The notes under the pieces: model-generated
Databases searched by the model: none
Told to the model about the DNA's origin: nothing
The model's input: the letters and a program-made list of their open reading frames with translations, nothing else
Program-made: the position numbers and the translations under genes
Shown: one piece after another, positions 1-19,273 of the stretch
Layout: the number at the start of each line of letters is the position of its first letter
Position numbering within the stretch: the first letter of the stretch is position 1
DNA from: Fastidiosibacter lacustris
Lineage (GTDB): Bacteria > Pseudomonadota > Gammaproteobacteria > Francisellales > Francisellaceae
Assembly: GCF_003428155.1 (NCBI RefSeq)
Contig: NZ_QLIR01000004.1
Span: forward strand, 60,001 to 92,000
Reading direction: 5' to 3'
DNA length: 32,000 bases

Positions 1-705
1 AAAAAGCAACAGCTTGAGAGAGCCGAGACTGCTGCCAACAATATTATACACATTGCTTACACAATTGGTGATGCGATTTATGAGCCAATGGCGATGATTC
101 AAATGTCTTCAACAACTTCAGAGCAAGATAATTACAAGAAACAGGCAAATGATATTAAGGAAGCATGGAAAAAGGAGAGTCGAATGATAAATGGTGAAAT
201 AACTTTAAAACAATTTTATCAGACAGATAACTTATCCGCTGTATGCGGGATAACACATCCCCCTGTCTCATCAAACATAACATTTCCATCTTGTCTTGAA
301 GCGAATAAGCCTCATAATAGATTTAGCCAAAATAATGGTAATTTCTTTTGTCAATGTACAAGTCAACAGATTGAAAAATTTCCATTCCTTAACATGGATG
401 GAAATGTTTTCATGCAGCCAATAGGTCTGGCTAATAATGAAACACCGAAATCCGTGTTATTACGTGTGCCTTATCCTGAGCGTGGCGGTAAAGTGGACAC
501 AGGACTCGCTCTAAGAATGATAGCGTATTTAAAGAAAAACCTAATTCACACGCCAGGGTCTAAGTTTGCAATTTGTGCAGGGAAATTAAAAAAAACAGGG
601 ATGACGCGTACTGAGTTTAGGTGTAAGGATGATATTGAATCAAATGATGTACTTGATCCTAGTGTTGTCGATCAGTTTATTTATATCGATATTGCAAGAA
701 GGTAA
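1..705 (+). CDS. hypothetical protein, 5' end outside window
   Basis: Frame 1 is open from nt 1 (KKQQLERAETAANN...) through the listed 88..705 ORF to the stop at 703-705, so the gene probably starts upstream of the window. No recognisable motifs. Lies directly upstream of the pil block on the same strand. Confidence 0.4.
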   Translation, partial: KKQQLERAETAANNIIHIAYTIGDAIYEPMAMIQMSSTTSEQDNYKKQANDIKEAWKKESRMINGEITLKQFYQTDNLSAVCGITHPPVSSNITFPSCLEANKPHNRFSQNNGNFFCQCTSQQIEKFPFLNMDGNVFMQPIGLANNETPKSVLLRVPYPERGGKVDTGLALRMIAYLKKNLIHTPGSKFAICAGKLKKTGMTRTEFRCKDDIESNDVLDPSVVDQFIYIDIARR

Positions 706-712
706 AAACAAT

Positions 713-1393
713 ATGAATAAGAAAATTAATTATAAGCTAAAGTGTTTTATTAGCTTCCCAGTACTTTTATGCACGGCTATGTTGCCTTATCAACTTGCTG
801 TGGCAAATAAATTAGCAGTAGATGATCACTTTAAGCTGTTAAACCCTTATTGTATTTCAGATAAAGCTTGTGCTGATGCTGATCTTACGAAAACACATGG
901 TATGGCTAAGATTTCTTCTGATGATGAATATAATGGTTTTGCACTCATTGTGGCTGACAATTTATTAGATCAGACGTTTTCTAGCAAACAGGTATATCAG
1001 ATTTTTAGCCAAGAAAACAATGATTATGCCATAAGTATTAATCTAGACGATAAAACAGTTGCGATTGCTAAAACACAAAAAGAAGCTGATTTACTAGCAA
1101 TGTGCCCAAGACAATTATTTTATGCCGAACAAGGGCAAACTTTAAAACAGACAGTTGAACGATGGGCCTCTTATCAAGGTATTAAAGTGATATGGGAAGC
1201 ATCTGTTGATTATAAGCTTGCCGCTTCGGCACAGTTTGAGGGACAACTGTTAGCAAAAAATGGAGCATTAAACAATTTGCTAAAAGCATTTGAAGATGCT
1301 GATCATCCACTGGAAGCACAGTTAAAGACAAATAACGTTTTGCTAATTAAAGCAAAATCATATTCTGCAAACATGGTCGTCATGCAAAAGTAG
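713..1393 (+). CDS. pilL: type IVb pilus PilL/TcpQ-like periplasmic accessory protein
   Basis: ATG at 713 preceded by AAGAAGG. N-terminal signal-like segment MNKKINYKLKCFISFPVLLCTAMLPYQLAVA. The C-terminal segment GQTLKQTVERWASYQGIKVIWEASVDYKLAASAQFEG matches, from memory, the TcpQ/PilL C-terminal domain pattern (G.TL...L..WA...G..L.W......D.......F.G). Sits immediately upstream of the secretin gene, as in R64/PAPI-1 pil clusters. The 629 start in the ORF track overlaps the upstream gene and lacks a signal peptide. Confidence 0.55.
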   Translation: MNKKINYKLKCFISFPVLLCTAMLPYQLAVANKLAVDDHFKLLNPYCISDKACADADLTKTHGMAKISSDDEYNGFALIVADNLLDQTFSSKQVYQIFSQENNDYAISINLDDKTVAIAKTQKEADLLAMCPRQLFYAEQGQTLKQTVERWASYQGIKVIWEASVDYKLAASAQFEGQLLAKNGALNNLLKAFEDADHPLEAQLKTNNVLLIKAKSYSANMVVMQK

Positions 1394-1408
1394 TTAAGGT
1401 TGTGGATA

Positions 1409-3025
1409 ATGAAAAACAATAAAAAGATATTACGTGTGTTGCTGTTGAGTAGCTTGATGCTATCGATGGCTGGTTGTAGCACTGCTATATATAAAACTGT
1501 TGATGAAAATGCAGATGCGAATATTGAGAAAACTAAGGCAATGATGTCAAACTTGAAAAAGCCAAAATCAGAGAGTTTTGTGACGATTAGTGATGAGCCT
1601 TACGTTCAAGGAGATTTAATTGATATTCAAGCACAAAACGCCTTGCCTGAAATATTTCAACGGTCATTTGCTTATAACAATACAGCAACAGGAGTAACAC
1701 TTGAAACGCTGATAGCAAAAATACAGCGAATTACTCAATCTAAGGTTGTTTTTTCGGAAGGTGCTATTGAGTATATTTCTCAGCGAGAACATCTAGCGAT
1801 GCCAGAGTCTGATATGCTAAAAAAAGAGCAGGTAGCGTATGAGATGTCGGATATTCATGATGTGATGATTCATTGTGACTATGATGGCAATATTGCCGGA
1901 TTTTTAGATTACTTTGCTTTTAAGCTTGGCATTTTTTGGAAGTATGATCAAAGTAGAAATACAGTTGAATTTTTTAGAATGGAAACAAAGACATTCCATG
2001 TTGATATTTTGACTGACAAGATTAAGACAACAGCGAAAGTCGGTAGTAACTCCAATACAGGGGTTAATCAATCTGCATCACTTCAAACTGAAAACCAAGC
2101 AGAATATGACAATCCTTGGGCAGCAGTGATTAAAACTATTAAATCTATTATTGGTAAATTGGGTACTGTGGATGAAAACTCGACACTTAACCTAATCACG
2201 GTAAAGACAACGCCACTATTAATGCGTCAAGTATCTCAGTATTTAGAAGAAATTAACCGTACAGCCAGAAAGAAAGTAGTGATTAGACTAGATGTCTATG
2301 ATGTAGATCAGAAAAATTCTTCTGGTTATGGTTTTAATTGGGATGCTGTATATAAAGCAACAAGTGGTAAAATTTCTTGGAACACTCCGACATTAACTGA
2401 TAACATTACTGGAATTAGTAATTATGGTACCCTAACAGGTGCTATTTCTTCAGGACCTTGGAGTGATTCGAAATTAATTATCAACGCTTTGCAAACGATT
2501 GGTAAAACAACACACGTGACAGGAACAACGCTTTATACGGTTAGTGGTCGTCCTGTGCCTATTCAAGTATCAACGACAACGGCTTATATTAAAAAAGTGG
2601 ATGTTGTGGTCACGGCAAGTGGCAGTGGACCAGGAGCTGTGCAACGATCAGTAACGCCTGGTGAATACACTGAAGGTTATGAAATCAAAGTCTTGCCGAT
2701 TGTTGTCAAAGGCAATGAAGTACTGGTTGATTTAAGTGTTAATTTAACGAATTTGGTACGTATGGATGAATCACAAGTTCCTGTGGATGGTAGTACACAG
2801 CCACAGACGATTAAATTGCCGTCAATACGTAATAAAAGTTTTATGCAATCTGTGCCGCTAAAGTCCGGACAAACCGTGATTTTGGCTGGTTTTGAAGACA
2901 CTAAAGATAACGCACAAACCGATAGCATTGGACCTAAAAGTACTTGGATGTTAGGTGGTTCACAAGCAGCTATAAACAACTCGACGATTACCGTTATTGT
3001 TGTAACGCCTTATTTAATACGTTAG
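1409..3025 (+). CDS. pilN: type IVb pilus secretin lipoprotein (PilN-like)
   Basis: ATG at 1409 after AAGG. Lipobox LSMAGC|S in MKNNKKILRVLLLSSLMLSMAGCS. The C-terminal third has secretin-domain character (GQTVILAGFEDTKDN...ITVIVVTPYLIR). Size of about 540 aa and position match R64 PilN. Confidence 0.8.
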   Translation: MKNNKKILRVLLLSSLMLSMAGCSTAIYKTVDENADANIEKTKAMMSNLKKPKSESFVTISDEPYVQGDLIDIQAQNALPEIFQRSFAYNNTATGVTLETLIAKIQRITQSKVVFSEGAIEYISQREHLAMPESDMLKKEQVAYEMSDIHDVMIHCDYDGNIAGFLDYFAFKLGIFWKYDQSRNTVEFFRMETKTFHVDILTDKIKTTAKVGSNSNTGVNQSASLQTENQAEYDNPWAAVIKTIKSIIGKLGTVDENSTLNLITVKTTPLLMRQVSQYLEEINRTARKKVVIRLDVYDVDQKNSSGYGFNWDAVYKATSGKISWNTPTLTDNITGISNYGTLTGAISSGPWSDSKLIINALQTIGKTTHVTGTTLYTVSGRPVPIQVSTTTAYIKKVDVVVTASGSGPGAVQRSVTPGEYTEGYEIKVLPIVVKGNEVLVDLSVNLTNLVRMDESQVPVDGSTQPQTIKLPSIRNKSFMQSVPLKSGQTVILAGFEDTKDNAQTDSIGPKSTWMLGGSQAAINNSTITVIVVTPYLIR

Positions 3026-3044
3026 GGGCTATGGAGAAGTTAAT

Positions 3045-4490
3045 ATGATCATTCATATAAATAATAACCATTATTTGATAGGACTGACGTGGCTGATGCT
3101 TGAAACAGAAAGTGCAATGATGCAAGAGTTTGAGCGTATGCATTGTGATGGCTTTCTTGTCGATACTAAGCGCGGAATTGCTGCGGGGGTGTCGCCTGAT
3201 TTATCTTTAAACAAAAATGATGTAATTGGTGCTATATCACTTGCTGCTGTGGTAAGTGAGTTATCAAAAGATGCTATTTATGTTTTCCCTTTGGCGAGTA
3301 AAAGTGGCGAATATACAGGAAAATATTGGTTGTGTTCTATTAAAAATGGCATTGTTTTGCCAACAGCATTACTTCCCGTTACTAAAGAAATAGAGTCTAA
3401 GATCTCTACTGTTAACCAATCACACGACCATATTCAACTATCAGGGGATATGATCGTTGATGAGGGGTCTTTGCATAGATTTTTGTTATATTTAGAGAAA
3501 GTTTTTTCATCAAATATATTTAGGCAAGTTTTACATTGTGATAAGGATAGTAGTGCCTTTTTTATCAATAAAATAGAATCAGATTTTGGAATTGACAGAA
3601 CAGCTATTAAAAAAAGCTCTTTAACTGAACTGCTTCTTAATGTGCCAGATCAACAACGATTTTGTATTAAACCATTGCTTAAAAATATTAAAAAGATAGC
3701 GCCAAAAAAAGGCACTGCTAATAAAAAAAGTCTTCCTATGTCACGGCGTAAGCTGATTGGATATGGAGTTTTATTATTATCATTGATGGTAGGTGGTTAC
3801 ATGTATTTTTTTAATGATTCGCCTTCCCAGCTTTCAGCTATAAAAGGAGAAGATAAGATTAAAAAGCAGCAAGAAAAAGAAGAATTTTTTAACAAAATAA
3901 ATAGTGAAATTAACAATAAGAATGCATATCCACTTATTATTAAATTTATTAATGCTATTAGCAATTTGCCTGTTTCTATTTTACAGTGGCATATCCAGAA
4001 AGTTTATTATGATGCTAGTGTATCGGATACTGTTGATGCTACTTATGTTTTATCTAGTAAAGATCATATTGTTTCACTGACTCAAGCGTCATTTAACAGT
4101 ATTCAATCATTGCAAGTAGCCTCAGTAACCGCTATAGCTGATAATATAACCAGTGCTCGTTTTAAGTTTATTTCTGATAAAAATACTTCAAAAGATCAAT
4201 CAACGTTTAACTTAAACAGTGCGGGACCCAAAGGTCATTATCGTTTTGATAAATTTATTGAAGAACTAAAACTCAGGGGGATGAACTTTAACTTGGCAAA
4301 AGCTCAGGTGTTGTCTTATGAGCTTCGCAAACACCCATTAACCATTTTAGGTCAGGGAATGCGGGAGCTTTTGTCGATAGCAGCAATGGCAAAAGAGCTT
4401 AATACATTTGTTTTAGTAAGTGTTGAAATACAAAATCATCAAAATACACCCATATCATGGGTTGTTAAAGGAGAGGTATATGAAGCATAG
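3045..4490 (+). CDS. pilO: type IVb pilus assembly protein PilO-like (bitopic inner membrane)
   Basis: 481 aa with one central TM segment (LIGYGVLLLSLMVGGYMYFF) preceded by a basic stretch (KKGTANKKSLPMSRRK). Lies between the secretin and PilP/PilQ, as PilO does in R64-type clusters. The assignment rests mainly on synteny and size. Confidence 0.5.
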   Translation: MIIHINNNHYLIGLTWLMLETESAMMQEFERMHCDGFLVDTKRGIAAGVSPDLSLNKNDVIGAISLAAVVSELSKDAIYVFPLASKSGEYTGKYWLCSIKNGIVLPTALLPVTKEIESKISTVNQSHDHIQLSGDMIVDEGSLHRFLLYLEKVFSSNIFRQVLHCDKDSSAFFINKIESDFGIDRTAIKKSSLTELLLNVPDQQRFCIKPLLKNIKKIAPKKGTANKKSLPMSRRKLIGYGVLLLSLMVGGYMYFFNDSPSQLSAIKGEDKIKKQQEKEEFFNKINSEINNKNAYPLIIKFINAISNLPVSILQWHIQKVYYDASVSDTVDATYVLSSKDHIVSLTQASFNSIQSLQVASVTAIADNITSARFKFISDKNTSKDQSTFNLNSAGPKGHYRFDKFIEELKLRGMNFNLAKAQVLSYELRKHPLTILGQGMRELLSIAAMAKELNTFVLVSVEIQNHQNTPISWVVKGEVYEA

Positions 4491-4971
4491 AATGATACGC
4501 TGTGCGTTGTTTTTTGTTGCACTAAACTCGGCAGTAGCAATGGCTTATACACAAACAAATTCATCGCAAACGTATGCAATTGATTCAACACAGGAATATT
4601 ATAAGAGTATTCAAGCGCAAGATCATTTGCATGCACAGATTGAACAGCAAGCACTTGAGAATAAAGCCATGCAGCAAAAGATAGATAGTTATAAATTGCA
4701 AAGGCAGCTTGCTGCCATTGGCAAATCGAAAGCATCATTAAGTGGAGCTTCGGCTAAGCAAGGTGACTATAGTATTGAAGTTGCTGAAGTATCAAAAGAA
4801 GATGGCATTTGGGAAGCAGTGATTTGGTATCATGCCAAAAAACATGAGCTTAAGGTTGGTGATATGCTGGAGGGTCGTTATAAAGTCGCTTCAATTAATG
4901 CCAATAAAGTGATACTCCTTGATGCTACAAGTCTTGATAAAGAGAGATACTTGACGATTGATGTTGGCTAA
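4480..4971 (+). CDS. pilP: type IVb pilus PilP-like periplasmic protein
   Basis: ATG at 4480 with AAAGGAGAGG 5-13 nt upstream, overlapping the pilO stop by 11 nt (translational coupling). Signal peptide MKHRMIRCALFFVALNSAVAMA. About 160 aa with a coiled-coil-like Q-rich centre. The call is based on position. Confidence 0.5.
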   Translation: MKHRMIRCALFFVALNSAVAMAYTQTNSSQTYAIDSTQEYYKSIQAQDHLHAQIEQQALENKAMQQKIDSYKLQRQLAAIGKSKASLSGASAKQGDYSIEVAEVSKEDGIWEAVIWYHAKKHELKVGDMLEGRYKVASINANKVILLDATSLDKERYLTIDVG

Positions 4972-4996
4972 ATTTAGTTAGGATGTAAAAGTATTT

Positions 4997-6625
4997 ATGA
5001 GTAGCAAATATCAAACAGTAGGCGATATTTACGGCAATATCTATCAGCCACAAAGTACCGGTGCGTATAAGCATATTGGTTCACTAAATGAGTTAGACTT
5101 TAGTATTCAAAAAGTAATTAGTGAGTCGATTAGAAAAGAACAATACGTTTTTGCTAAGGCACTCAAAGATGGTCGTCAAGAGATTATCGTAGCCTTTATT
5201 TCAACAGACGTACCTGAAGCACGCTATGAACATATTAAAAAACAAGTAAAGAGTTACGTTAAAGGCGATATACCGATTGTTGTCCAGCCAGTTTCCCCCC
5301 TATTGTTAGATGATGTTATTGCGTTAGCATCAGAAGATGAAATTGATACAGGCATTTTAAGTGAATTTTATAACATTGTGAAAGAGGCGGTAGACAACCA
5401 TGCCTCAGATATCCATATTGAAGCAACTGCCACAAAGGTTGAATTAAAGCATCGCATTAATGGTTTGGTATATTTACATAAAGAATATGATGCGGATGTG
5501 ATGCTTAAGGTGCTTCGTGCTATTTATAACACCAAAGGACATTATGGTACAGTTGATAAACAACTAGATTTATACAATAAAGCACAGCAAGCAGTAATTG
5601 ATCAAAATATTGCTGGCATGGTATATCGACTAAGGTTCCAAAGTACTCCTTTATATCCTTATGGTTATAATGTTGTTATGCGTGTATTATCGATGGGTAA
5701 AAAACAAAGCCAAACGATAAATTCATTAGGTTATTCCTCTCAACAAGTTGAATTAATAGATAAAGCCTTGACTGCACCGGAAGGAGTGATTATTTTTTCT
5801 GGTGAAACTGGTTCGGGGAAAAGTACCTCTTTGTCAGTGGTATTGAAATTAATGGTTGATCGCAGTCGTCGACAGAAAAAAATCCTTACAATCGAGTCAC
5901 CTCCTGAGTATATTATTGATGGTGCTTGCCAAATTCCTGTTCATGAAACGGCAGATGATACAAGTCAGATGACATTAGAAAAGTTTAATCATACTTTTAA
6001 AGCAGCAATGCGGCTTGATCCTGATGTTATTATGGCAGGAGAAATTCGTGATCGCTCATCTGCGGCATTGTTGCAACAGGCAGTGCAATCGGGGCATAAG
6101 GTGCTAACAACATTACATGCGCAAAATGCTTTTTTATGTATTGATCGTTTAATGGGAATTGGTATTGATAGAGATGTTTTATTATCACCTAAATTTTTAT
6201 CGCTGATTGTTCACCAAACCCTTATTCCAATTGTATGTCCTCGGTGTGCTTGGAGTTATGATAAATATCAATCCATATATCCTGATTGTCAGATATTGCA
6301 AAGGTTGCAAAATATTAATCGCTATTATGGTAATGATGACCATCGGTTAGCCGATGTGCATTTTGCCAACCCAGATGGATGTATTCACTGTGATCATAAA
6401 GCGGCGATTGGTCGCGAGGTGGTGGCTGAAATATTAGCACCAACGGAGAAAATATTAGAAAAAATTAATTTAGGTAAGCATCAACAAGCAAGAGAAATAT
6501 GGCATCAAAATGGTGGTAAAACGATTAGCTACCATGCCTTTGAAAAAGTGTTATCAGGTTTGCTTTGCCCTGTTATTTATGAGTATAAAATGGGTCGCTT
6601 AGATCAGTTGGAGGGGGTTTTATGA
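4997..6625 (+). CDS. pilQ: type IV pilus assembly ATPase, GspE/PilB family (PilQ of R64 nomenclature)
   Basis: Walker A GETGSGKST (nt 5801-5827), Walker B/Asp box DPDVIMAGEIRD, His box GHKVLTTLHA, and a tetracysteine motif CPRC...CIHC typical of GspE-family ATPases. Confidence 0.9.
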   Translation: MSSKYQTVGDIYGNIYQPQSTGAYKHIGSLNELDFSIQKVISESIRKEQYVFAKALKDGRQEIIVAFISTDVPEARYEHIKKQVKSYVKGDIPIVVQPVSPLLLDDVIALASEDEIDTGILSEFYNIVKEAVDNHASDIHIEATATKVELKHRINGLVYLHKEYDADVMLKVLRAIYNTKGHYGTVDKQLDLYNKAQQAVIDQNIAGMVYRLRFQSTPLYPYGYNVVMRVLSMGKKQSQTINSLGYSSQQVELIDKALTAPEGVIIFSGETGSGKSTSLSVVLKLMVDRSRRQKKILTIESPPEYIIDGACQIPVHETADDTSQMTLEKFNHTFKAAMRLDPDVIMAGEIRDRSSAALLQQAVQSGHKVLTTLHAQNAFLCIDRLMGIGIDRDVLLSPKFLSLIVHQTLIPIVCPRCAWSYDKYQSIYPDCQILQRLQNINRYYGNDDHRLADVHFANPDGCIHCDHKAAIGREVVAEILAPTEKILEKINLGKHQQAREIWHQNGGKTISYHAFEKVLSGLLCPVIYEYKMGRLDQLEGVL

Positions 6626-7755
6626 TAATATCTTCATTAAAATCAATGATTTTACGCTTGCGTGGAGTGCGTGAAAGTAAAAAGCAGGATACCTCCAAAA
6701 AGTACAATATGTTAATGGTTTTTGTTTTACGTCTATTTTTTTCTAACCGTGTGCGTGCATCATTGTATCAAAATATTATTTTGGTGATGAGTAACAGCAG
6801 CTTGAGTATCTATGGAACACTGGTGGCATTAAAGGAAAAATATCAATATTATCGATCATTTAACAATAAAGTTTTGGCAACAATTTTACAAGATTGGATT
6901 ACTAAAATTGAATACGATGGTATGACGTTTGATGAAGCGATTAAGCCTTATATTCCAGAAAATGAACATATGATGATTAAGGCAAACTTTGATAATCCGA
7001 TCAATGCGCTTGATTATGCTAGCTCACTCACTCAAAAGTTTGCCTTGTTAGCCAAGAAAATTGCCATCGGTATGATTATGCCAACAATTTCAATATTAGT
7101 TTTAATTGGTGTTATTGTTGGTTGTTCATTAAAGGTAATTCCGATGTTATTGGAATCGTTACCAAAAGAGAACTTATCAGGAAACATAGCAGATTTTATT
7201 GCGTTAAACGATTATATTACAGGTCATACTTGGCATATTATTTTGCTTGCTATTGTACTTTTTATTATGCTTCCTATTATTGTTAAGCGTTGGACTTTTA
7301 ATATACGTTACCATTTGTTTGATAAATTATGGGGATTTGCTGAGTATAAAAGAATACAGGCAACAAGTGTCCTTATTTCCTTAGCATCATTACTTAGCTC
7401 AGGAAAGAGCTTTAACATGGCATTTATGTTAATTGAAAATAACTGCTCTCATTACTTAAAGCAATATATTAGCAAGATTAGATTGATGATGTCACAAGAT
7501 GGAGTTTCTGCTGGACGTGCTTTAGCAAGTGTTAACCTTTTTAACAACAATACATCATTGCTTTTGGATATTTACACCGATACAGGTGCAATTGAACAAG
7601 GGTTACTTGCATTAAGTGAGCGTGTATTGGAAACGGAGATTGAAGCAATTGTAACAAAAATGAAGATGATTGGTTTTATTATCTTAAGTTTATCAATGAG
7701 CTATATTGGCTTTTTTTATTTCTCAGTTGCTACTTTGTCAGACAGCATGAAATAA
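6622..7755 (+). CDS. pilR: type IV pilus inner-membrane platform protein, GspF/PilC family (PilR of R64 nomenclature)
   Basis: ATGA overlap with the pilQ stop. 377 aa polytopic protein with about 3 hydrophobic segments separated by two soluble repeats, which is the size and architecture of GspF/PilR. Follows the ATPase, as in all R64-type clusters. Confidence 0.75.
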   Translation: MIISSLKSMILRLRGVRESKKQDTSKKYNMLMVFVLRLFFSNRVRASLYQNIILVMSNSSLSIYGTLVALKEKYQYYRSFNNKVLATILQDWITKIEYDGMTFDEAIKPYIPENEHMMIKANFDNPINALDYASSLTQKFALLAKKIAIGMIMPTISILVLIGVIVGCSLKVIPMLLESLPKENLSGNIADFIALNDYITGHTWHIILLAIVLFIMLPIIVKRWTFNIRYHLFDKLWGFAEYKRIQATSVLISLASLLSSGKSFNMAFMLIENNCSHYLKQYISKIRLMMSQDGVSAGRALASVNLFNNNTSLLLDIYTDTGAIEQGLLALSERVLETEIEAIVTKMKMIGFIILSLSMSYIGFFYFSVATLSDSMK

Positions 7756-16732: not shown

Positions 16733-17266
16733 CTAAAAGGTTGCTTCAATCTTAAAGTCAAAGTTGCCTTCATACTTTCCTTCTTGGTATTTATTAGTTC
16801 CATCACCGTAAATTACTTTTAAGTCTTTCGCCCCCCCCCCTGGTGTTAAGGATTTAAAATTTATTTTTGAAGTAGGGCTCTTAATTTCATTGCCACCTAT
16901 TTCGAACGTTACTGGCATTTCTTCACCGTGACCACTCGTAGTATTTTTGATTACATATTCATTACTACTACTATTTGTTGGTCCAGAAGTAATAGAAATG
17001 CCAATCTCCCCTGTACTGCTATCAGTCCACTCTAAGAAGTCAGTAATAATAGACTCTTGTTTGTTGGTTGACATAGCCGCTCTTTTTGGTGCACTTGTAG
17101 ACTTAGTTGTTGAAAGTTTTAAAACGTCTTGTAGTGTTTTCGGACCTACTTCTGTGCTAACTATAATTTGTACTGTATCAGTTACAGTAGCAGCATAGGA
17201 AGCCACAATACCGCCCAATAAGCTTGCCATTACGGTTGTAGCTAAAATTTTTTTACTTTTTATCAT
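16733..17266 (-). CDS. major fimbrial subunit (chaperone-usher pilin)
   Basis: Strong RBS (AAGGAG, 7 nt before the ATG). Signal peptide ...GGIVASYA|A. The mature N-terminus ATVTDTVQIIVSTEV has alternating hydrophobics and resembles a donor strand. C-terminus GKYEGNFDFKIEATF. Lies between chaperone and usher, as in cfaABCE/cooBACD-type operons. Confidence 0.7.
   Translation of the reverse strand: MIKSKKILATTVMASLLGGIVASYAATVTDTVQIIVSTEVGPKTLQDVLKLSTTKSTSAPKRAAMSTNKQESIITDFLEWTDSSTGEIGISITSGPTNSSSNEYVIKNTTSGHGEEMPVTFEIGGNEIKSPTSKINFKSLTPGGGAKDLKVIYGDGTNKYQEGKYEGNFDFKIEATF
16831..16840 (-). repeat. homopolymeric tract, C10 on plus strand = G10 on the pilin coding strand
   Basis: Read directly: tttcg CCCCCCCCCC tggtg. 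On the coding strand this is cca ggg ggg ggg gcg, encoding P-G-G-G-A in ...SLTPGGGAKDLK... It is the longest G/C homopolymer I found; the others reach at most 6. Confidence 0.95.
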
Positions 17267-17465: not shown

Positions 17466-18254
17466 TTACGCAAGGAAATAGCGCTGTTTTTGGGTATTCT
17501 TACCATTTTCAAAAACTTGAATTTCAATGTTCTCTTTAAGAAAGGATGTATCTATGACACGATTTTTTTGTGGATAAACTTTATATTTTTGTTCAAACAC
17601 ACCTTGTTGGTTACAATATGAATGATTGACAGTAACACCGCCTGTTTTCAATGAGTCATTTGTTTTACATTTTGCTTTAACTTCTGTTTCAATAACGGCA
17701 TTACCATTGTTATAAATATAAATAGCCTCATCTTTTTGCGAAACGGTTGTTTTGTAAAAGGCGTTTTGTGGTTGAACGGCTAAAATACTGGAAAAACCTA
17801 TCGTAATTCCTACACCTGCGGATATTCCGTCATTATCTGCAAGTTCTTTATCTGAAAGCGCAAAACCATCTTCTTTTTTTGGTGCAACAGGTGTCATATT
17901 GACACGATAATAAGAAACCTCATCTTTATTTCTGCCTTTTGGATAGTAAAAACGAATATTTTTTGACTGTCCAGGTGGAATAATTAACCTACTTGGTGTC
18001 ACGAATAATGATTCTGACATTTCTTTTGGCAGAAGTGTTTTTTCAGTTTTATTATCAGATAGTGGATTTTTTACTTCCACTAGTTCAATTTTGACATAAG
18101 CTGTTTTATTGGGATCATCATTATGAATTGTTTTAGAAAAAGTGACTTTATCTTCAGACCAAATATCATAAAGATCATCAATAGCAATATTTGCCATTGA
18201 TAAGCTGTAAAAACCACATAACATCGTAATTGTTAGTGTTATAACACCCTTCAC
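17466..18254 (-). CDS. periplasmic fimbrial chaperone (PapD-like fold expected)
   Basis: Preferred start is the GTG at 18254, since AAGGAG lies 6 nt upstream (AAGAAGGAGAACAAAGTG). This gives signal peptide VKGVITLTITMLCGFYSLSMA|N. The mature protein of about 240 aa contains LFVTPSRLIIPPGQSKNIRFYY, a chaperone-type strand pattern. First gene of the fimbrial operon. Confidence 0.65.
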   Translation of the reverse strand: MKGVITLTITMLCGFYSLSMANIAIDDLYDIWSEDKVTFSKTIHNDDPNKTAYVKIELVEVKNPLSDNKTEKTLLPKEMSESLFVTPSRLIIPPGQSKNIRFYYPKGRNKDEVSYYRVNMTPVAPKKEDGFALSDKELADNDGISAGVGITIGFSSILAVQPQNAFYKTTVSQKDEAIYIYNNGNAVIETEVKAKCKTNDSLKTGGVTVNHSYCNQQGVFEQKYKVYPQKNRVIDTSFLKENIEIQVFENGKNTQKQRYFLA

Positions 18255-18454
18255 TTTGTTCTCCTTCTTCAATCTCACCCCAACAAGTAAATCATACGAG
18301 TTTATTGATGTCATGGTTTATAATGTACCCATTTGTTAACATTAGAAATAATCTTCTTTATGGATTGATGTCTCCCTTGTTAAAGATGTCAATGCAGGAG
18401 TGTTATAGATCTGGCTAAATATGAAATCAAAGTATACAGCAGACTTAACTTGAC

Positions 18455-19273
18455 TTAGCGGGAACTGCTAATGTTGTTTTGATATTCGTGAGTACGTATG
18501 AAACAATTTTCTAGTTCTTTAGCATTAATCTTACAAGGAATATGCCCATTTACTGCGTCATGTAATTCCTTAGGATTAAGGTTTTTTAGATTTTTAAGCT
18601 GATGGGTGTTTAGATTATTGTAATACTCCTGTCCATCGTCATTTAAATGTAAATTTTTTTCTTTAAGATATTTGTCAATATAAGAAGCTCTATTTTCAGG
18701 ATTATTAATTGGCATGTCTTTAATCATAGTAAATAATATATCTTCATTTTTATTTGCTGGAGAATTAAAAACTTCTTTTTTGCTTTCCAAAAGGGTATTC
18801 ATTTGATTAAGCATTTTTGAAGAATTAGTTTCCATTGAAAACGCTGCTTTGAAATTGCCATTTAAAACGTTTCTAAAAAATTTAATAATTTGATAATGTG
18901 AATCAACAGTATTCCTGTGCTTGATAAATTCCTTATTATTACTTAAGACGTCTAATTCTTTTATTGCATTTTCTCTAAAATTTGAGAGTATATATTCGAT
19001 TTGATATTTAGGTTCAGCTTTAAACTGGGATAATTCGCCCTCTGTTCTAGTTACTATCTTTTTTAGATTATCTATAGTATTGAGTTTGTTATTTGCAAGT
19101 AATGAATTTTGAGATTTTAAATTCTGTATATATGATTTTAATAGATTTTCGAATAAATAAAATTTTTCTATTTCAATAAGATAATGAGGATGCGTCTTTA
19201 AATAATTTTGATTACTACATAAATAATTAGGTAGTTCATCCATGGAACGATTTAAGAAAGTAGACTTCGACAT
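18455..19273 (-). CDS. hypothetical Asn/Lys-rich cytosolic protein (orphan)
   Basis: 272-aa ORF with no signal peptide or TM segment, very AT-rich, weak RBS (AAGAG). No motif I recognise. Confidence 0.55.
   Translation of the reverse strand: MSKSTFLNRSMDELPNYLCSNQNYLKTHPHYLIEIEKFYLFENLLKSYIQNLKSQNSLLANNKLNTIDNLKKIVTRTEGELSQFKAEPKYQIEYILSNFRENAIKELDVLSNNKEFIKHRNTVDSHYQIIKFFRNVLNGNFKAAFSMETNSSKMLNQMNTLLESKKEVFNSPANKNEDILFTMIKDMPINNPENRASYIDKYLKEKNLHLNDDGQEYYNNLNTHQLKNLKNLNPKELHDAVNGHIPCKINAKELENCFIRTHEYQNNISSSR

Follow-up and report, generated by a model that had tools for sequence, protein, structure and literature searches.

Chaperone-usher fimbriae are known to switch mostly through promoter tracts, invertible elements or methylation. 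We know of no slipped-strand switch described for the CS1/CFA-I/ECP fimbriae, and a literature search found no intragenic slipped-strand switch for that clade. The closest described systems in which a homopolymer acts through the reading frame are Neisseria pilC (PMC13017665) and the phasomes of Neisseria and Campylobacter (PMC5953494), where poly-G tracts of at least nine bases lie inside pilus or surface-protein ORFs, and where a one-base change causes a frameshift and a premature stop that is reversible in principle. Here we analyze a run of ten guanines (G10) in a fimbrial gene of Fastidiosibacter lacustris, a free-living lake isolate of the order Thiotrichales and a relative of Francisella, using a 32-kb stretch of DNA that we refer to in its entirety as the window. 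G10 shares each of these features, and its length places the pilin ORF within the in-silico threshold for phase-variable genes, a poly-G/C run of at least nine (PMC5953494). It differs in its position and its distribution. The pilC gene, which encodes an accessory protein of type IV pili, has its tract in the signal-peptide coding region (PMC13017665), and the tracts of the Neisseria and Campylobacter phasomes are located toward the 5' end and conserved from strain to strain, with length polymorphism and switching rates on record (PMC5953494), whereas G10 lies 80% of the way along the ORF of a chaperone-usher major subunit and is private to one strain.

Two further systems bracket the comparison. 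The original prediction, which had proposed G10 as a candidate slipped-strand switch, drew a parallel with the fim genes of Bordetella, and at fim2, fim3 and fimX a homopolymeric C/G tract does govern expression of a chaperone-usher major fimbrial subunit, as G10 would here. The parallel is nonetheless inexact, as the Bordetella C-stretch lies in the promoter and changes the spacing for BvgA-dependent transcription (PMC1891110), while G10 lies in coding sequence and would act via the frame. Listeria monocytogenes inlA likewise carries a homopolymer within a surface-protein ORF in some strains only, and its truncation is reversible; there, the tract is a poly(A) at the extreme 5' end of the gene, the truncated product is 8 aa long, and frameshifts arise at a frequency approximately 1000 times the point-mutation rate (PMC2831843). 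Against this background, the G10 locus would add a case of a known mechanism, not a new mechanism.

We estimate at roughly 55% the probability that G10 is real and will act as a frameshift hot spot, turning the pilin off and on. G10 may or may not have been selected for switching. As a strain-specific candidate phase-variation site of the textbook kind, G10 is plausible and unproven.

The tract lies in a minus-strand operon whose gene order, from chaperone to 513-aa protein, is the same in every relative. The features discussed below are as follows.

17466..18314, minus strand: periplasmic chaperone, 282-aa ORF
16733..17266, minus strand: major pilin gene, 177 aa
13910..16387, minus strand: outer-membrane usher, 825 aa, with TcfC and CooC_C domains
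12883..13923, minus strand: 346-aa protein, by position the counterpart of the tip adhesin of CS1/CFA-I operons
12348..12869, minus strand: 173-aa putative minor subunit with a pilin-like C-terminal motif (…YRGQLICTVSVNF)
11776..12336, minus strand: 186-aa putative minor subunit, conserved in all related operons
10073..11614, minus strand: 513-aa protein, function not assigned, the last operon gene in all relatives (about 500-520 aa)
16763..17173, minus strand: hypervariable mosaic cassette of the pilin gene, defined by comparison with 'Ca. Nebulobacter yamunensis'
16831..16840, minus strand: G10 homopolymer, codons 143-145 (GGG three times) and the first base of codon 146 (GCG)
16736..16831, minus strand: residues 146-177 of the pilin, which a +1 or -1 slip would remove or replace, including the final two predicted beta-strands

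We accept that the gene carrying G10 encodes the major fimbrial subunit of an alternate (ECP/CS1-like) chaperone-usher system because operon order, usher and chaperone homology, predicted fold, ribosome-binding site, Sec signal and size all agree, and the prediction of a chaperone-usher major pilin is upheld in this respect. The usher scores 68 bits against PF16967 TcfC, for which the cut-off is 29.4, and 49.7 bits against PF15976 CooC_C, for which it is 29, and its nearest annotated relatives by tblastn are EcpC (E about 4e-36) and the CS19 usher CsdC (E=1e-8). The chaperone is homologous to CsoB/CooB of CS1 (BLASTP E=2e-11, 27% identity over 149 aa), with a PapD_N match that is weak and below cut-off (16.3 vs 23 bits); by comparison with a related metagenome contig, its true start is probably the GTG at 18254, for a protein of ~262 aa. 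The order chaperone, major pilin, usher, tip subunit equals that of the annotated CS1 operon csoB-cooA-csdC-csdD.

The 177-aa pilin matches an NCBI 'hypothetical protein' of F. lacustris with 100% identity; it has no significant sequence match in Pfam, NCBIfam or PDB, and its hhalign probabilities are 24% against CooA, which is weak, and 1.4% against EcpA. Its gene has a strong AAGGAG ribosome-binding site 7 nt upstream, and the protein begins with a Sec signal peptide of ~25 aa that ends in SYA, before ATV. A model of the full-length protein had low confidence over the N-terminal 65 residues, so the mature domain was remodelled, giving an AlphaFold model with a pLDDT of 81.6 and a pTM of 0.78. 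The best PDB match to this predicted domain by Foldseek is EcpA (E=1.6e-5, probability 1.00, TM 0.52), followed by other chaperone-usher subunits (BPSL1626, AfaE/DraE, FimG).

The operon thus shares a TcfC/CooC_C usher and a CooB-type chaperone with the class 5 CS1/CFA-I (cooBACD/cfaABCE) and ECP (ecpRABCDE) operons of E. coli, with a gene order identical to that of CS1 and a predicted pilin fold closest to EcpA. Unlike those operons, its pilin and putative adhesin have no detectable sequence similarity to their counterparts, three extra genes (encoding 173, 186 and 513 aa) lie downstream, and no Rns/CfaD or EcpR-type regulator is encoded with it. For the putative adhesin, BLASTP of the 346-aa protein against the annotated CS1 tip adhesin CsdD gives E=0.12, which amounts to no detectable similarity, and a faint Fimbrial_CS1 match occurs only in its orthologue from Cysteiniphilum halobium. 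A type IVb pilus-like biogenesis cluster adjoins the fimbrial operon.

We also considered other ways in which the operon might be switched. An invertible promoter can be set aside, since there are no convincing inverted repeats around the intergenic regions and no recombinase in the window. Searches by tblastn and blastn, with every allele as query and both the window and related loci as targets, revealed no silent pilin cassettes that could serve as donors for gene conversion. Domain searches of the window's ORFs detected no regulator domain, AraC-type Rns/CfaD and EcpR both being absent, and a scan of the window for promoters and terminators returned the same counts as shuffled sequence. The absence of an invertase and of a recognizable regulator from the locus had been pointed out before and is borne out for the window, and we count it, together with the lack of invertible-promoter repeats and of silent cassettes, in favor of a switch at G10. 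The stronger suggestion that the tract may be the only switch is one that cannot be made: an OmpR/ToxR-type regulator accompanies related Cysteiniphilum operons, and the window encodes a 272-aa upstream protein of uncharacterized role that bears no relation to the Trans_reg_C regulator at the upstream position in Cysteiniphilum.

The tract is exactly where it had been reported, as C10 on the plus strand at 16831..16840, between the g at 16830 and a t, reading as G10 on the minus strand. Our run scan agrees that it is the sole G or C run longer than six in the 32-kb window (36.0% GC), the runners-up being two C6 and two G6. It begins at codon 143 in phase 0 (CCA GGG GGG GGG GCG, P-G-G-G-A) and is read through in the 177-aa ORF, in agreement with the predicted ON state. 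Its distance from the 3' end is slightly shorter than the ~35 codons given previously, with 32 codons following the three glycine codons and the tract starting at nucleotide 427 of 534. The expected number of G or C runs of at least ten in the window is 2.6e-3 under an iid model and 1.8e-3 under a first-order Markov model. Scaled to the genome (2.07 Mb, size from PMC9837558), this becomes 0.11-0.17, or ~0.4 runs per genome if the roughly 5-fold drop in run counts per added base seen in the window is extrapolated. G10 is therefore clearly non-random within the window, yet genome-wide it is merely mildly improbable, and its interest rests on its location, not on its existence.

The location is such that a slip would be costly to the protein. 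In computed translations, G9 yields a 148-aa product ending …GGGRKT, with a stop at 16821..16819, and G11 a 154-aa product ending …GGGGERLKSNLR, with a stop at 16805..16803, while G7 and G13 keep the reading frame. A swap to a long alternative C-terminus can be rejected, as both shifted frames hit a stop within 3-9 codons, making the outcome of a slip ON or OFF. Two predicted models of the pilin place the tract's glycines in an inter-strand loop, with the final two beta-strands (full-length residues 147-154 and 163-176) downstream of it. The region lost is also the most conserved part of the pilin family: the 18% of the protein downstream of the tract holds 14 of the 40 family-invariant columns (K.L...YGDG...Y..G.Y.G.F.F.I...F). 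The predicted truncation of the G.Y.G...IEATF region by a +1 or -1 slip is thus confirmed in these computed translations. In chaperone-usher subunits, the groove accepting the donor strand is lined by the C-terminal strand, with which the chaperone also pairs. Because the C-terminal strand is needed for assembly, the truncated subunit would be neither chaperoned nor polymerized, and a slipped pilin gene would very likely be OFF, judging from what is known of chaperone-usher assembly.

From these features we propose the following sequence of events. G10 codes for a surface loop of the major pilin, Pro-Gly-Gly-Gly-Ala, and the length of the tract would make it a slipped-strand hot spot during replication, as is generally the case for G/C tracts of at least nine. 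Loss or gain of one G would shift the frame and end translation after 148 or 154 residues, and the truncated subunit, without its last two beta-strands, would be degraded and form no fiber. A compensating slip would restore the frame, whereas an in-frame change of three bases would alter the length of the loop and nothing else. G10 would in this way constitute a de facto heritable and reversible translational ON/OFF switch of fimbriation, its present state being ON. Such a switch would be young, having arisen in one allele of a hypervariable cassette, probably by an expansion of the G7-to-G10 type.

The youth of the tract is suggested by comparison with its relatives, which are few. The pilin family is very small, with one relative returned by a word-indexed search over 5.8 billion clusters and three by an exhaustive HMMER scan of 1.84 billion representatives. 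Six alleles or paralogues were compared in total, comprising that of the window and the following.

'Ca. Nebulobacter yamunensis' JAMBMW, which lives as an obligate endosymbiont in the ciliate Euplotes and has 99.38% ANI to F. lacustris (PMC9837558)
A metagenome contig of 3.4 kb
Cysteiniphilum halobium
Cysteiniphilum sp. 19S12-1, with two paralogous operons

The original prediction had called for such a comparison, and its outcome is unfavorable to a conserved switch. All five of the other alleles or paralogues lack the tract, the 99.4%-ANI sister strain included, their codons at this position being AAT GAT AAA, GGA ACT AAG, GGT GAT GCT, AAT GAT GCT and GGT GAT ACC, and no G or C run longer than seven occurs across ~100 kb of related loci. 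G10 is therefore recent and confined to one strain, and is no conserved switch; we count its absence from all five relatives against a switch. No second copy of the G10 allele appeared among the 5.8 billion clustered proteins, the 1.84 billion representatives, or our genome and metagenome scans, and the cluster containing the exact pilin protein has one member; a single sequence of the allele is known and no tract-length polymorphism has been observed, which we count against a switch.

The surroundings of the tract, by comparison, evolve quickly. Between the window and 'Ca. Nebulobacter yamunensis', the 411-bp cassette contains ~166 differences (~60% identity), whereas the DNA flanking it differs by well under 1% and every flanking gene is 98-100% identical. 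Such a contrast between strains of 99.4% ANI indicates, from sequence comparison, that the pilin is under strong diversifying pressure. G10 lies inside this cassette, 68 nt from its 3' boundary, in a loop that is hypervariable in both sequence and length among relatives (5-6 residues) and that is one codon longer in F. lacustris than in four of the five. We count the diversifying pressure in favor of a switch, as it is the setting in which contingency switches evolve, and the longer, length-variable loop likewise, as it fits past in-frame slippage in a permissive loop.

The same loop gives rise to the alternative that survives best, which we regard as possible but on the doubtful side: that G10 is an incidental homopolymer, produced by mutation and slippage in an insertion-tolerant loop of a fast-evolving cassette and having no selected function. 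The tract would then be a mutational liability, bound in time to inactivate the pilin, and would sit in a lineage where decay of the fimbrial locus and of the genome has already begun. That loop length varies among relatives suggests that glycine insertions are tolerated there, the tract is private to one strain, and the 0.1-0.4 such runs per genome expected by chance count against a selected switch. So does its placement toward the 3' end of the ORF, since repeats selected for phase variation are biased toward the 5' end, in Francisella tularensis as elsewhere, although this is a statistical tendency and no absolute rule (PMC3315296, PMC2831843). Nor are long tracts always variable: in Bordetella pertussis, three of nine genotyped tracts (some shorter than nine bases) were invariant across 90 strains (PMC1891110), which we also count against a switch. 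Decay of the lineage could be read from the premature stop in the sister strain's chaperone, described below, and from the 129-191 predicted pseudogenes in the genomes of F. lacustris and 'Ca. Nebulobacter yamunensis' (PMC9837558).

Other observations are harder to accommodate under an incidental origin. GGG makes up 12.8% of glycine codons, and the probability that three glycine codons are all GGG is ~2e-3; elsewhere in the window, a further 26 Gly-Gly pairs are nearly all encoded by GGT or GGC. We count this improbability under the genome's codon usage in favor of the switch. Deriving G10 from the codons of relatives (GGT GAT GCT, for example) requires several AT-to-GC changes in an AT-rich genome. 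Long repeats in coding sequence are generally selected against (PMC3315296), yet G10 is intact and in frame. Even an unselected run would physically be a reversible frameshift hot spot, and so the main difference between an incidental tract and a selected one is whether the switching is adaptive. Taken as a whole, the proposed switch is favored by the length and frame of the tract, the identity of the gene as a pilin and the loss of its C-terminus upon a slip, while the restriction of the tract to one strain and its position at 80% of the ORF weigh on the other side.

Two further alternatives fare much worse. One is that G10 is a sequencing or assembly artefact, from a homopolymer miscall or a poly-G read artefact, and that the true run is shorter or interrupted. 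The F. lacustris genome (strain SYSU HZH-2) is a draft (QLIR00000000; 2.07 Mb, 36.3% GC, 62 contigs; PMC9837558), some sequencing chemistries are prone to errors in homopolymers, and the G10 allele is known from one assembly. However, coverage is ~100x (PMC9837558), the flanks align cleanly with the sister strain, the NCBI protein has the identical 177-aa sequence, and the frame continues beyond the tract into a C-terminus nearly identical to those of relatives, when two in three random errors in length would disrupt it. Since the frame is preserved into the conserved C-terminus at this coverage, we consider an artefact very improbable. The other is that selection at the protein level favored a flexible Gly3 loop, for antigenic or structural reasons, with the homopolymer a by-product of the amino-acid sequence; the tract does map between strands in a loop of hypervariable sequence and length, but no relative has more than one glycine there, protein-level selection does not require GGG codons, and other Gly-Gly pairs avoid G runs, such that we give this explanation very little credence.

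Whether G10 is selected or incidental, the operon has diverged between F. lacustris and its endosymbiotic sister strain in more than the pilin. In 'Ca. Nebulobacter yamunensis', the chaperone gene has a TGA in place of TGG at the tryptophan encoded at 18161..18159 of the window, and the gene is called as two fragments of 51 aa and 204 aa; besides the TGA, three substitutions separate the two chaperones in the aligned region. Recoding of UGA to tryptophan is present in one member of the family, XS4 (PMC13462651). In the endosymbiont it is unlikely, as none of 47 other tryptophan codons is TGA, and TGA ends one gene in the window. The sequence is better read as containing a true nonsense mutation, and the fimbrial locus may be under relaxed selection in this lineage, given the stop codon in the sister strain's chaperone, which we count against a switch at G10. 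Giannotti et al. 2022 found no genomic determinant for the split between free-living and obligate-symbiont lifestyles, and pili and fimbriae are unmentioned in the text of that paper. The pilin allele and the integrity of the chaperone are a concrete difference between F. lacustris and 'Ca. Nebulobacter yamunensis'.

It is conceivable, though we consider it improbable, that G10 is a new contingency switch on a hypervariable fimbria and that free-living F. lacustris and the endosymbiont differ in very few functions, the state of the operon being one of them. F. lacustris has an intact chaperone and would have a switchable pilin; the endosymbiont has a chaperone with a premature stop and a different pilin allele. 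Were this true, fimbriation, and turning fimbriation off, would matter for entry into the ciliate host or for persistence there.

Should G10 not be validated, it is an ordinary chance homopolymer. If it is validated, it would represent a slipped-strand switch inside the gene for the major pilin of a chaperone-usher fimbria, acting in coding sequence and carried by a protist-associated environmental bacterium of the Thiotrichales. To our knowledge, phase variation is essentially unstudied in the environmental, protist-associated members of this Francisella-related order. Since the tract is private to one allele, it would also represent a contingency locus caught at or near its birth. The locus marks a testable difference between two strains that have opposite lifestyles and, so far, no genomic explanation for them.

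The pilin gene of F. lacustris is a mosaic, in a pattern that looks as if recombination had replaced one allele with another under diversifying selection. The comparison that shows the mosaic is with 'Ca. Nebulobacter yamunensis', the sister strain living as an obligate Euplotes endosymbiont, whose genome shares 99.4% ANI with that of F. lacustris. The divergence between the two genes is confined to a central segment:

16763..17173, minus strand: divergent pilin segment (compared with about 10094..10478 of the endosymbiont locus, L001)

Across these 411 bp there are about 166 differences (about 60% identity). Outside them the two genes are essentially identical, over the signal peptide and the 6 mature residues that follow it as well as over the last ~10 codons, and so is all of the flanking DNA. 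The pilin of a metagenome contig (L002) represents a third allele, which is equally distant.

Comparison across the family indicates that the pilin evolves much faster than the usher throughout, as identities relative to the window are 73% for ushers and 39-49% for pilins. The genome of Cysteiniphilum sp. 19S12-1 carries the whole operon in two paralogous copies (L009 and L010). The usher of either copy shares about 73% identity with the window usher, and the two pilins share 44% identity with each other. The distribution of the pilin family is extremely restricted: a search of 1.84 billion representative proteins yielded about six distinct sequences in total, all from Fastidiosibacteraceae (Fastidiosibacter, Cysteiniphilum) or the one metagenome contig.

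The operon's surroundings and terminal gene comprise the following:

629..1393, plus strand: TcpQ-domain protein, type IVb pilus-like cluster
1400..3025, plus strand: secretin, same cluster
4997..6625, plus strand: T2SSE ATPase, same cluster
6622..7755, plus strand: T2SSF platform protein, same cluster
7855..9744, minus strand: 629-aa protein
10073..11614, minus strand: 513-aa protein, terminal gene of the fimbrial operon
18455..19273, minus strand: 272-aa protein, unrelated to the regulator found at this place in Cysteiniphilum
L003 6333..7031 and L009 2746..3399: Trans_reg_C regulator, just upstream of the chaperone

The type IVb pilus-like biogenesis cluster spans 88..7755 on the plus strand; with the fimbrial operon, the region carries genes for two types of surface appendage. 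Just beyond the downstream end of the fimbrial operon, Cysteiniphilum (L003, L009) has a type IV pilin gene. Searches of Pfam and NCBIfam gave no matches for the 513-aa and 629-aa proteins. Every relative keeps the 513-aa protein as its last operon gene (about 500-520 aa), which makes it a possible uncharacterised part of the fimbrial system. Directly upstream of the chaperone, two Cysteiniphilum operons (L003, L009) encode the OmpR/ToxR-type regulator; the 272-aa protein found there in F. lacustris has no recognisable domain and is 99.6% conserved in the sister strain.

Two positions in the chaperone gene bear on its reading:

18314, minus strand: ATG of the ORF as listed (282 aa)
18159..18161: Trp codon, TGG in the window and TGA in L001 (9106..9108)

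Comparison with the L002 orthologue, which is 262 aa long, puts the probable true start at a GTG codon at 18254; the protein would then have about 262 aa, with a signal peptide and the N-terminus MKGVITL…. In L001 the gene is called as two fragments (51-aa and 204-aa), and besides TGG to TGA just three substitutions separate the aligned regions. The comparative genome paper makes no mention of this TGA (PMC9837558). Reading it as a stop carries two caveats: TGA seldom serves as one (1/27 genes in the window), and UGA-to-Trp recoding occurs in the family member XS4 (PMC13462651). It is probable that the free-living strain has an intact fimbrial system and the endosymbiont an inactive one.
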